A DNA stretch of 64,000 nt, taken from NCBI RefSeq assembly GCF_056746865.1, contig NZ_CM163382.1. One strand, 5' to 3'. Positions 10,603 through 53,871 of the stretch are shown here, in pieces. A model generated the notes under the pieces. The model ran no database searches. It was not told the origin of the DNA and saw only the letters and a program-made list of their open reading frames with translations. Each line of letters opens with the position of its first letter. Position 1 is the stretch's first letter. A program made the translations under genes and the position numbers.

Positions 10603-12845
<2,243 letters not shown>

Positions 12846-26318: not shown

Positions 26319-27860
<1,542 letters not shown>

Positions 27861-27928
27861 CCTTAAAGAATCGTTCTTTGAAGTGCTCACACAGATTGTC
27901 TGATGAAAATGAGCAGTAAAACCTCTAC

Positions 27929-28005
<77 letters not shown>

Positions 28006-28047
28006 AATTTGCACCGCAAATTTGAAGAGGTTTTAACTACATGTTAT

Positions 28048-28123
28048 GGGGCTATAGCTCAGCTGGGAGAGCGCCTGCTTTGCACGCAGGAGGTCTGCGG
28101 TTCGATCCCGCATAGCTCCACCA
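28048..28123 (+). tRNA. alaT: tRNA-Ala (TGC anticodon)
   Basis: GGGGCTATAGCTCAGCTGGGAGAGC...CTTTGCA...GCTCCACCA in the 16S-23S spacer. Confidence 0.95.
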
Positions 28124-28306
28124 TCTCTGTAGTGATTAAATAAAAAATACTTCAGAGTGTACCTGCAAAGGTTCACTGCGAAGTTTTGCTCTTTAAAAAT
28201 CTGGATCAAGCTGAAAATTGAAACACTGAACAACGAAAGTTGTTCGTGAGTCTCTCAAATTTTCGCAACACGATGATGAATCGAAAGAAACATCTTCGGG
28301 TTGTGA

Positions 28307-31208
<2,902 letters not shown>

Positions 31209-31300
31209 ACAACGCCGAAGCTGTTTTGGCGGATTGAGAGAAGATTTTCAGCCTGATACAGATTAAATCAGAACGCAGAAGCGGTCTGATAAACAGAATT

Positions 31301-31420
31301 TGCCTGGCGGCCTTAGCGCGGTGGTCCCACCTGACCCCATGCCGAACTCAGAAGTGAAACGCCGTAGCGCCGATGGTAGTGTGGGGTCTCCCCATGCGAG
31401 AGTAGGGAACTGCCAGGCAT
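31301..31420 (+). rRNA. rrfA: 5S ribosomal RNA
   Basis: TGCCTGGCGGCC...GGGAACTGCCAGGCAT, 120 nt. Confidence 0.97.
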
Positions 31421-40367: not shown

Positions 40368-40514
40368 GATTCGCCTGAACATGCCCTTTTTTCGTAAGTA
40401 AGCAACATAAGCTGTCACGTTTTGTGATGGCTATTAGAAATTCCTATGCAACAACTGAAAAAAAATTACAAAAAGTGCTTTCTGAACTGAACAAAAAAGA
40501 GTAAAGTTAGTCGC

Positions 40515-40623
40515 GTAGGGTACAGAGGTAAGATGTTCTATCTTTCAGACCTTTTACTTCACGTAATCGGATTTGGCTGAATATTTTAGCCGCCCCAGTC
40601 AGTAATGACTGGGGCGTTTTTTA
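40515..40623 (+). ncRNA. spf: Spot 42 small regulatory RNA
   Basis: GTAGGGTACAGAGGTAAGATGTTCTATCTTTCAGACCTTTTACTTCACGTAATCGGATTTGGCTG... ending in terminator GCCCCAGTCAGTAATGACTGGGGCGTTTTTT; recognised by sequence. Confidence 0.92.
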
Positions 40624-40748: not shown

Positions 40749-41381
40749 TTATTCGCCGTCCTGCGTTTCTTCTACAGGCTGCATCTCGCTAAACCAGGTA
40801 TCCAGTTTCTGCCGCAGCTTGTCCACGCCTTGTTTCTTCAGTGAAGAGAACGTTTCAACCTGCACATCACCGTTAAACGCCAGCACCGCTTCACGCACCA
40901 TATTCAATTGCGCTTTACGTGCGCCGCTTGCCAGTTTGTCCGCTTTGGTCAGCAGCACCAGCACGGCGATATTGCTGTCTACCGCCCACTCAATCATCTG
41001 CTGATCCAAATCTTTCAGCGGATGGCGAATATCCATTAGCACCACCAGACCTTGCAGGCTCTGACGTTTTTCGAGGTATTCGCCGAGCGCGCGCTGCCAT
41101 TTGCGCTTCATCTCTTCCGGGACTTCCGCGTAGCCATAGCCGGGCAAGTCAACCAGACGCTTGCCGTCAGCCACTTCAAACAGGTTGATAAGCTGGGTGC
41201 GCCCTGGGGTTTTTGAGGTCCGCGCCAGGCTTTTCTGGTTAGTCAGCGTGTTCAGCGCGCTGGATTTACCTGCGTTGGAACGGCCTGCAAAAGCCACTTC
41301 AATTCCGGTATCGGAAGGTAAGTGGCGAATATCAGGCGCACTCATCACAAAATGCGTCTGTTGATAATTCAAATTAGTCAA
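40749..41381 (-). CDS. engB: Ribosome biogenesis GTPase EngB (YihA)
   Basis: 210-aa ORF with G1 motif GRSNAGKSS; matches YihA/EngB. Confidence 0.93.
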
Positions 41382-41651
41382 AGCGGTCGTCTCCGTCAGT
41401 CAAAGCTTTGCGGCGATTATACCTGAACCATAATAAAAGGCGGATTTTTCGGCGTGAGCGTTGTAAGTAAAAGCCATACGCTTTGTGAGACATTGCCGAT
41501 AGTCTTTATGCGAAATAGCAGAGAAAATTCTGCGATGCATGTCAAATAAGCTATATAAATCAGTTAATTGCTTTTATATAAAACTCTGAAAATGTGCAAA
41601 TACTGATGGCGGTTGATTGTTTGTTTAAAGCAAAGGCGTAAAGTAGCACCC

Positions 41652-41896
41652 ATAGAGCGAGGACGCTAACAGGAACAATGACTCAGGATGAGGGTCAGGA
41701 GCGCCAGGAGGCGAAGACAGAGGATTGTCAGGAAGACAAACGTCCGGAGACGTAATTAAACGGAAATGGAATCAACACGGATTGTTCCGGCTAATGGAAA
41801 AACAGGGTGTGTTGGCGGCCTGCAAGGATTGTAAGACCCGTTAAGGGTTATGAGTCAGGAAAAAAGGCGACAGAGTAATCTGTCGCCTTTTTTCTT
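41652..41896 (+). ncRNA. csrC: CsrC small RNA (CsrA-sequestering)
   Basis: ATAGAGCGAGGACGCTAACAGGAACAATGACTCAGGATGAGGGTCAGGAGCGCCAGGAGG...; dense AGGA/CAGGA motifs; intrinsic terminator GGCGACAGAGTAATCTGTCGCCTTTTTT at 3' end. Confidence 0.88.
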
Positions 41897-41962
41897 TGCT
41901 TGCTTTCTGTTAGATTCCGCCGCAAATCTATACTGAATAAAACGGCTAAAAGACGAACCATT

Positions 41963-42472
41963 ATGAAACCATCATCTTCAAACTCACGCAGCAAAGGTCA
42001 TGCAAAAGCGCGTCGAAAAACACGCGAGGAGCTGGATCAGGAAGCTCGTGACCGTAAGCGTCAGAAAAAACGTCGTGGTCATGCGCCGGGCAGCCGCGCA
42101 GCGGGCGGTAACACCACGTCAGGCAGCAAAGGCCAGAACGCACCGAAAGATCCACGTATTGGCAGTAAAACCCCTATTCCATTGGGCGTGACTGAAAAAG
42201 TCACCAAACAGCACAAACCGAAGAGTGAGAAACCTATGCTTTCACCGCAGGCGGAGTTGGAATTACTGGAAACGGATGAGCGTCTGGATGCGCTGCTGGA
42301 ACGTCTGGAAGCAGGCGAAACCCTGAGTGCCGAAGAGCAATCCTGGGTGGATGCCAAACTGGATCGTATTGATGAGTTGATGCAGAAACTCGGCCTCTCT
42401 TATGACGATGACGAAGAAGAGGAAGAAGACGAGAAGCAAGAAGACATGATGCGTCTGCTGCGGGGCAACTAA
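41963..42472 (+). CDS. yihI: Der GTPase-activating protein YihI
   Basis: Start ATG 41963 ([20 protein letters not shown]...), 169 aa, basic N-terminus and acidic C-terminus. Confidence 0.88.
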
Positions 42473-48582: not shown

Positions 48583-48720
48583 AGCGAAATCTGTGCCAAC
48601 TTTTAAATTGCCCCTAAAAGGCGTTATCATGCTTAACATCGTGCAAAAGGGCTGCACCATGATATGAATGTTGCACCAATATAGTGCTTCAATGGAAACA
48701 TTAAGCACCATATTGGTGCA
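48583..48720 (-). promoter_or_regulatory. glnAp2 sigma54 promoter (TTGGCACAGATTTCGCT at 48583-48599, minus strand) with upstream NtrC enhancer sites (48672-48687 and 48705-48720)
   Basis: -24 GG / -12 GC element on the glnA strand; palindromes TGCACCAATATAGTGC and GCACCATATTGGTGCA further upstream. Confidence 0.8.
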
Positions 48721-48871
48721 ATGACCTTTGGATAACCCTTTTTATGCTCCGTGAAAGCGATCACAAAGGGACTCTGCAATACTTGTTTGCGGAGGATGTT
48801 TGTGATCCTGTTTTGTAGTGCGATTAATCCGTGTACAATAACGCGCTATTTCTAATGCCTGAGGCAAAGTT

Positions 48872-51629: not shown

Positions 51630-53871
<2,242 letters not shown>

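Follow-up and report, generated by a model that had tools for sequence, protein, structure and literature searches.

CsrC is one of two brakes on CsrA, the controller of glycogen storage, biofilm formation, motility and virulence, and the CsrC of Escherichia coli K-12 has reportedly been characterised since 2003, by Weilbacher et al. The RsmX, RsmY and RsmZ RNAs of Pseudomonas belong to the same Rfam clan as CsrC and follow the same decoy principle, which they direct against the CsrA homologue RsmA, with transcription driven by the orthologous GacS-GacA system. They are shorter than CsrC, differ from it in sequence family and genomic context and, to our knowledge, have no detectable sequence homology to the csrC locus. 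Much closer in design is CsrB (RF00018, clan CL00106), in which many GGA motifs in short hairpin loops likewise sequester CsrA dimers, and for which transcription also depends on BarA-UvrY and decay on CsrD/RNase E. CsrB differs from CsrC in being longer, with 22 GGA, in lying near syd rather than between yihA and yihI, in having a near-perfect palindrome, TGTGAGAGATCTCTTACA, as its UvrY site and in needing IHF for its transcription, which csrC does not. Sources differ on CsrB, which is credited with 18 binding sites (PMC8151843) or with 22 GGA sequences (PMC7652899); for CsrC, the published figure is 14 CsrA sites (PMC8151843).

Dimers of CsrA recognise GGA motifs carried in short hairpin loops (PMC7652899, PMC5027483, PMC8151843), and one RNA-binding face of a dimer can attach to each site that contains a GGA (PMC7652899, PMC5027483); according to this literature, a single molecule of CsrC therefore ties up several CsrA dimers, which antagonises CsrA in vivo and frees CsrA-repressed or CsrA-activated mRNAs from control (PMC7652899, PMC5027483). 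Phosphorylated UvrY activates CsrB and CsrC transcription, for csrC without IHF (PMC4682653, PMC7652899), and for their decay both RNAs require CsrD and RNase E, with glucose acting as the trigger through EIIA-Glc and CsrC having a short half-life (PMC7652899, PMC5027483). When either RNA is lost, the other becomes more abundant (PMC7652899, PMC5027483, PMC8151843). Homologues of csrC always adjoin yihA and yihI, the three genes being arranged as <- -> -> (Kulkarni et al. 2006, PMC1488887), and the UvrY site at csrC has been mapped by ChIP-exo and DNase I footprinting as TGTGAGACATTGCCGATA, with a TGTAAG 16 bp upstream (Zere et al. 2015, PMC4682653).

We analysed a 64-kb stretch of DNA, hereafter the window, in which positions 41652-41897 of the plus strand are, to judge from their sequence, almost certainly csrC, the Escherichia coli gene for the decoy sRNA CsrC. 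The gene and its neighbours are as follows.

40749-41381, minus strand: yihA (engB), the divergent upstream neighbour, recognised as an ORF, by NCBIfam TIGR03598 (YihA/YsxC, 252 bits against a cut-off of 124) and by the K-12 annotation
41652-41897, plus strand: csrC, predicted gene for the CsrC sRNA, 246 nt by the K-12 annotation (b4457), matching RF00084 and containing 14 GGA
41963-42472, plus strand: yihI, the co-oriented downstream neighbour, recognised by NCBIfam NF003560 (YihI, 169 bits against a cut-off of 90) and by the K-12 annotation

YihA/YsxC is the EngB family of GTPases, and the order yihA <- csrC -> yihI -> is present here as in K-12; the sequence-only reading, which had placed the stretch between engB and yihI, was right about both neighbours. 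Using cmscan with Rfam 15 on the whole window, run at the gathering threshold, we obtained a match to RF00084 (CsrC; gathering score 61) at 41652-41905 on the plus strand, covering positions 1-255 of the 255 of the model with 277.9 bits and E = 1.2e-87. Compared with csrC of K-12 MG1655 (b4457, NC_000913.3 4051036-4051281), window positions 41652-41897 are identical at 245 of 246 bases and have the same 5' end. The sequence-only reading had recognised CsrC and had named the Rfam scan as the way to check it; the full-length match, the near-identity to K-12 and an exact UvrY site upstream (described below) all uphold this identification. Its coordinates, 41652-41896, agree exactly with K-12 at the start and stop short at the end, by one base relative to K-12 (41897) and by nine relative to the Rfam match (41905). 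A permissive Rfam scan of 41400-42000 gave the same CsrC match again, together with sub-threshold matches to the Thr leader, miRNA models, STnc40 and others, all located on the terminator hairpin, which we rejected as chance matches to a generic hairpin.

The only mismatch between this csrC and that of K-12 is at 41795, with T here and A in K-12, just 5' of GGA number 12, where other genera have G, A or T; the substitution turns AAAGGAAAA into AAUGGAAAA and leaves the GGA unharmed. This T is a common natural allele, since 2515 of 5422 complete E. coli genomes have the 61-nt segment around it in exactly the form of the window. Three bases differ from K-12 over the 582 bp of the yihA-yihI intergenic region, two of them upstream of csrC (41411 and 41565). 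Locus, 5' end, the 14 GGA, terminator, and UvrY inverted repeat with its half-site are all the same as in K-12, and of 5426 complete E. coli genomes 5425 gave a megablast match to 41300-42100, in many cases with 100% identity. CsrC in its canonical place is already known, and there is nothing unusual about the present copy. Of the roughly 5400 matches to the csrC region, two come from records classed as plasmids, for which misassembly, a captured chromosomal fragment or mis-typed replicons are possible explanations.

In order to compare the locus across the Enterobacteriaceae, the family to which the comparison set is confined, species-representative genomes were scanned with a pattern of the most conserved csrC bases. 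This gave 42 loci from about 12 enterobacterial genera, among them Citrobacter, Salmonella, Escherichia, Pluralibacter, Pseudocitrobacter, Superficieibacter, Trabulsiella, Leclercia, Lelliottia, Yokenella and Enterobacter. In keeping with the published rule on gene order (PMC1488887), 39 of the 42 loci have yihA on the minus strand upstream of csrC and 41 have yihI on the plus strand downstream of it, the exceptions being cut by the locus ends. One of these loci (L041, CACSKA010000012.1) carries the label 'Chryseobacterium sp. 18061' and is a typical enterobacterial yihA-csrC-yihI locus, with a YihA about 90% identical to that of E. coli; it is nearly the same as the locus of 'Citrobacter sp. 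18056' from the same study, and the assembly is probably mislabelled or contaminated.

The stretch was also described by the sequence-only reading as lacking an ORF, and indeed it contains no long one: the longest is a 39-aa ORF with a TTG start at 41725-41844, the frame of which is not conserved. We nevertheless considered whether the stretch encodes a small protein, either by this ORF, which does exist, or by the longer 'hypothetical protein' predicted by PGAP. The RefSeq/PGAP record of strain 118UI holds a pseudo-CDS ('hypothetical protein; frameshifted; internal stop') inside csrC, at 1879-2045 of the extracted locus (L001), equivalent to 41678-41844 of the window, and leaves the ncRNA unannotated; a 'hypothetical protein' likewise underlies the match in many genomes (every one among the matches listed, in both BLAST searches), and the neighbouring Spot 42 is now annotated as a dual-function RNA with a small protein, SpfP. 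Against this, most of the 31 enterobacterial sequences aligned have a homologous span whose length is not divisible by 3, the frame meets a stop after 0-23 codons in 15 of the 31, with the start codon lost in two of those 15, and the TTG directly abuts GAGGA without a spacer, which leaves no usable Shine-Dalgarno spacing. PGAP itself flags its call as frameshifted with an internal stop. As the frame is not conserved, we reject both the 39-aa ORF and the PGAP pseudo-CDS, and consider a coding function highly improbable; the PGAP pseudogene within csrC looks like a widely propagated annotation artefact. A CDS-only view had been said to leave this gap unexplained, which is a fair description: K-12 has csrC annotated there, and a PGAP-style view either leaves the region unexplained or, as in the record of strain 118UI, fills it with a spurious frameshifted 'hypothetical protein' and no ncRNA.

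The 3' end of csrC carries the strong intrinsic terminator that the sequence-only reading had announced.

41857-41896, plus strand: intrinsic (Rho-independent) terminator found by a terminator scan, with an 18-bp stem (7 G-C pairs), a 4-nt loop and a T-run

The stem includes A6/U6 and partly buries GGA number 14, and in the 31-sequence alignment the corresponding helix 10 shows 99% pairing, most of it being invariant from genus to genus. The terminator region (41857-41900) is nearly symmetric, of the form A6-stem-loop-stem-T6, and is terminator-like on the minus strand too, where it gives a 41-bit partial CsrC match; it could act bidirectionally, and no convergent minus-strand gene lies downstream of it. 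This terminator bears on a second alternative, about as improbable as a coding function, in which the stretch is a 5' leader or a cis-regulatory element of yihI. Such a role would suit a stretch that is co-oriented with yihI and ends only 66 nt before its start codon, but the 18-bp stem and U-run, invariant across genera, stand between the two; moreover, K-12 annotates a separate ncRNA gene here, and an Rfam model made for a free-standing sRNA is matched from end to end. We would thus describe the CsrC of this window as an RNA predicted to be independently transcribed, terminated and non-coding.

A consensus promoter scan found no strong sigma-70 promoter in 41350-42000, and the promoter was located by phylogenetic footprinting, aligning positions -70 to +13 of 43 enterobacterial sequences. 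In these 43 sequences the TTG at 41617-41619 is invariant and the GTAAAGT at 41638-41644 nearly invariant, the rest of the upstream DNA being divergent, which pointed to the following elements.

41617-41622, plus strand: putative -35 element TTGTTT (-35 to -30), a weak match (3/6) separated from the -10 by a 16-nt spacer, proposed from the conserved TTG
41639-41644, plus strand: putative -10 hexamer TAAAGT (-13 to -8), proposed from its conservation, 7 nt upstream of the annotated 5' end

We infer that TTGTTT and TAAAGT would be the -35 and -10 of the csrC promoter; their spacing of 16 nt places the start at about 41652. The weak -35 and the lack of a strong sigma-70 match in the scanned region would fit an activator-dependent promoter. 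Further upstream, the arrangement published for UvrY can be recognised.

41462-41467, plus strand: TGTAAG half-site, 16 bp upstream of the UvrY inverted repeat, as in the published arrangement
41484-41501, plus strand: candidate UvrY-P site, an 18-nt imperfect inverted repeat, TGTGAGACATTGCCGATA (-168 to -151), an exact match to the published sequence and unique in the window

The pattern TGTAAG-N16-TGTGAGA occurs once in the window, at 41462-41490, and the UvrY site about 160 bp upstream of csrC thus appears, by its sequence, to be present. Among the related loci the strict motif TGTGAGA is found in 28 of 42, and the relaxed motif TGT[GA]AG[AG], at -200 to -130, in 36 of the 41 that are testable; the remaining five have TGTAGGA- or CGTGAGA-type variants at the same position.

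The upstream repeat also helps to separate csrC from its paralogue. The stretch could in principle be CsrB, or a generic member of the CsrB/Rsm clan, given that CsrB and CsrC share clan CL00106 and the GGA-in-loop design and that lower-scoring, overlapping clan matches are present in the scan, where they were suppressed. CsrC nevertheless scores best within the clan, its 277.9 bits spanning the whole model; csrB belongs to the syd neighbourhood, whereas the present locus is yihA-yihI, the repeat has the csrC form TGTGAGACATTGCCGATA rather than that of the palindrome at csrB, TGTGAGAGATCTCTTACA, and there are 14 GGA against the 22 reported for CsrB. This assignment therefore has even less to commend it than the two alternatives above, and we keep to the assignment as CsrC.

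The GGA motifs of csrC were located individually, and are numbered below from the 5' end.

41661, 41672, 41686, 41698, 41707, 41722, 41731, 41746, 41762, 41768, 41779, 41796, 41826 and 41858, plus strand: GGA motifs 1 to 14, in this order

On the plus strand of 41652-41896 there are exactly 14 GGA, where the sequence-only reading had counted roughly 13-14, and on the opposite strand two. Nine of the 14 stand in an AGGA context and six of these nine in CAGGA, in keeping with its description of most motifs as CAGGA/AGGA. A sliding window along the plus strand of the 64 kb gave a mean of 3.3 GGA per 245 nt (sd 1.9), and the csrC locus has the highest GGA count of any 245-nt stretch on either strand of the window. 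Dinucleotide-preserving shuffles of the stretch contained on average 8.8 GGA (sd 2.0), and at least 14 in 16 of 2000 cases; the excess over shuffles is moderate because the signal is in large part one of composition, the stretch being rich in purines (64% A+G). The excess beyond composition is real.

Folding of CsrC gave -90.4 kcal/mol, more stable than shuffled sequences (z = -5.84), and when the Rfam consensus structure was projected onto the window all 59 pairs were canonical. The main parts of this structure are the following.

41657-41752, plus strand: 5' cluster of short hairpins and linkers with GGA 1-8 (Rfam consensus structure)
41660-41663, 41685-41691, 41706-41709, 41720-41725 and 41745-41748, plus strand: loops of the 5' cluster (Rfam structure)
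41768-41810, plus strand: longer, bipartite central stem-loop (Rfam helices 6 and 7), with GGA 11 in a bulge and GGA 12 in the stem (Rfam structure)

In the Rfam consensus structure six motifs (GGA 1, 3, 5, 6, 8 and 13) are in hairpin loops and five (GGA 2, 4, 7, 9 and 10) in single-stranded linkers; GGA 11 is mostly in a bulge, GGA 12 in a stem and GGA 14 partly in the terminator stem. Burial of the motifs in stems, which the sequence-only reading had proposed to look for by counting GGA in the loops of the folded RNA, is thus confined to two of the 14, and the Boltzmann ensemble agrees, with a mean unpaired probability of 0.61 at GGA positions against 0.36 elsewhere. About 11-12 of the 14 GGA are predicted by these models to be exposed in CsrC. 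The 14 need not all be functional sites, as stems are predicted to take up two or three of them (GGA 12, GGA 14 and part of GGA 11).

The comparison with other genera adds to this picture. The homologous 250 nt or so contains 13-16 GGA in all 42 loci. As the search pattern fixes GGA 3-5, their conservation was left out of the evidence; of the 11 unconstrained motifs, 10 are kept within +-4 columns in at least 30 of 31 sequences, GGA 14, in the terminator stem, being variable (17 of 31). On the 31-sequence alignment the Rfam structure is 91.1% paired, against 39-47% when the partners are slid by 1-3 columns. The helices of the 5' cluster are 80-100% paired over the 31 sequences, with compensatory changes in helices 1 and 5, and in the central helices 6 and 7 pairing is found in 79-88% of cells, two pairs showing compensatory change. 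Altogether compensatory change occurs in five pairs, for example A-U/G-C at 16:14 in helix 1. The count of compensatory pairs in this alignment is not above that of shuffles, which reached it in 128 of 500 cases, as is to be expected of so narrow a phylogenetic set; the covariation in the CsrC alignment is real but weak, and gives the structure modest support.

The remaining alternative, a functionless purine-rich intergenic spacer with its GGA count due to chance, gains from composition alone an expected count of about 9, and is the least credible of all in view of the strand asymmetry of 14 to 2 and the window-wide maximum, the conservation of GGA positions, hairpins and terminator over about 12 genera while flanking intergenic DNA diverges, the fold z-score of -5.84 and the Rfam E-value of 1e-87.

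With the stretch taken as CsrC, a working model can be proposed from its sequence and predicted fold. The csrC unit would run from a conserved promoter to a strong intrinsic terminator, downstream of a UvrY site, and of the GGA motifs in its RNA about a dozen would be on display in the loops of short hairpins or in single-stranded linkers. Binding of CsrA, activation by UvrY and the route of decay may be carried over from the near-identical CsrC of K-12, from which the present RNA differs by one base.

One part of the 5' cluster can be drawn in two ways, as listed here.

41717-41728, plus strand: Rfam helix 4, GACA/UGUC, with GGA 6 in the loop (Rfam consensus)
41725-41739, plus strand: alternative hairpin UUGUC-AGGAA-GACAA, with GGA 7 in the loop (41730-41734), proposed from the alignment, the MFE fold and RNAalifold

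The two are mutually exclusive, as both use the UGUC at 41725-41728. The alternative hairpin is preferred by the MFE fold and by RNAalifold and is 97.4% paired in the alignment; six sequences show in it a compensatory swap from U-A to C-G, and they are exactly those in which helix 4 breaks, although the six probably represent a single evolutionary event. In the 31-sequence alignment the alternative hairpin is, as far as sequence comparison indicates, better supported than Rfam helix 4. We consider it a serious possibility, somewhat short of an even chance, that helix 4 is wrong or that it alternates with the hairpin at 41725-41739. If the two hairpins do interconvert, binding of CsrA at one site could decide which neighbouring GGA shows. 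This would be a refinement of a known RNA and not a new element, and the detail is only mildly new.

Other RNAs were found in the window in the course of the same analysis. The Spot 42 sRNA gene (spf) lies between polA and yihA, at 40505-40623 on the plus strand (RF00021, 122.8 bits), and K-12 now also has the small protein SpfP annotated inside it; with spf and csrC, the 1.6 kb between polA and yihI holds two well-known sRNAs. Full-length Rfam matches above the gathering score were also obtained for Erse (10957-11208, plus strand), ES222 (48683-48790, plus strand), isrC (53054-53176, minus strand) and StyR-44 (28191-28299, plus strand). The Erse match, of 319.5 bits, ends in UGA and may overlap a coding region, and the StyR-44 match lies in the spacer of an rRNA operon. 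This operon is complete and occupies 26319-31418 on the plus strand, with the 16S rRNA at 26319-27860, two tRNAs at 27929-28002 and 28048-28120 (both on the plus strand), the 23S rRNA at 28307-31208 and the 5S rRNA at 31303-31418.
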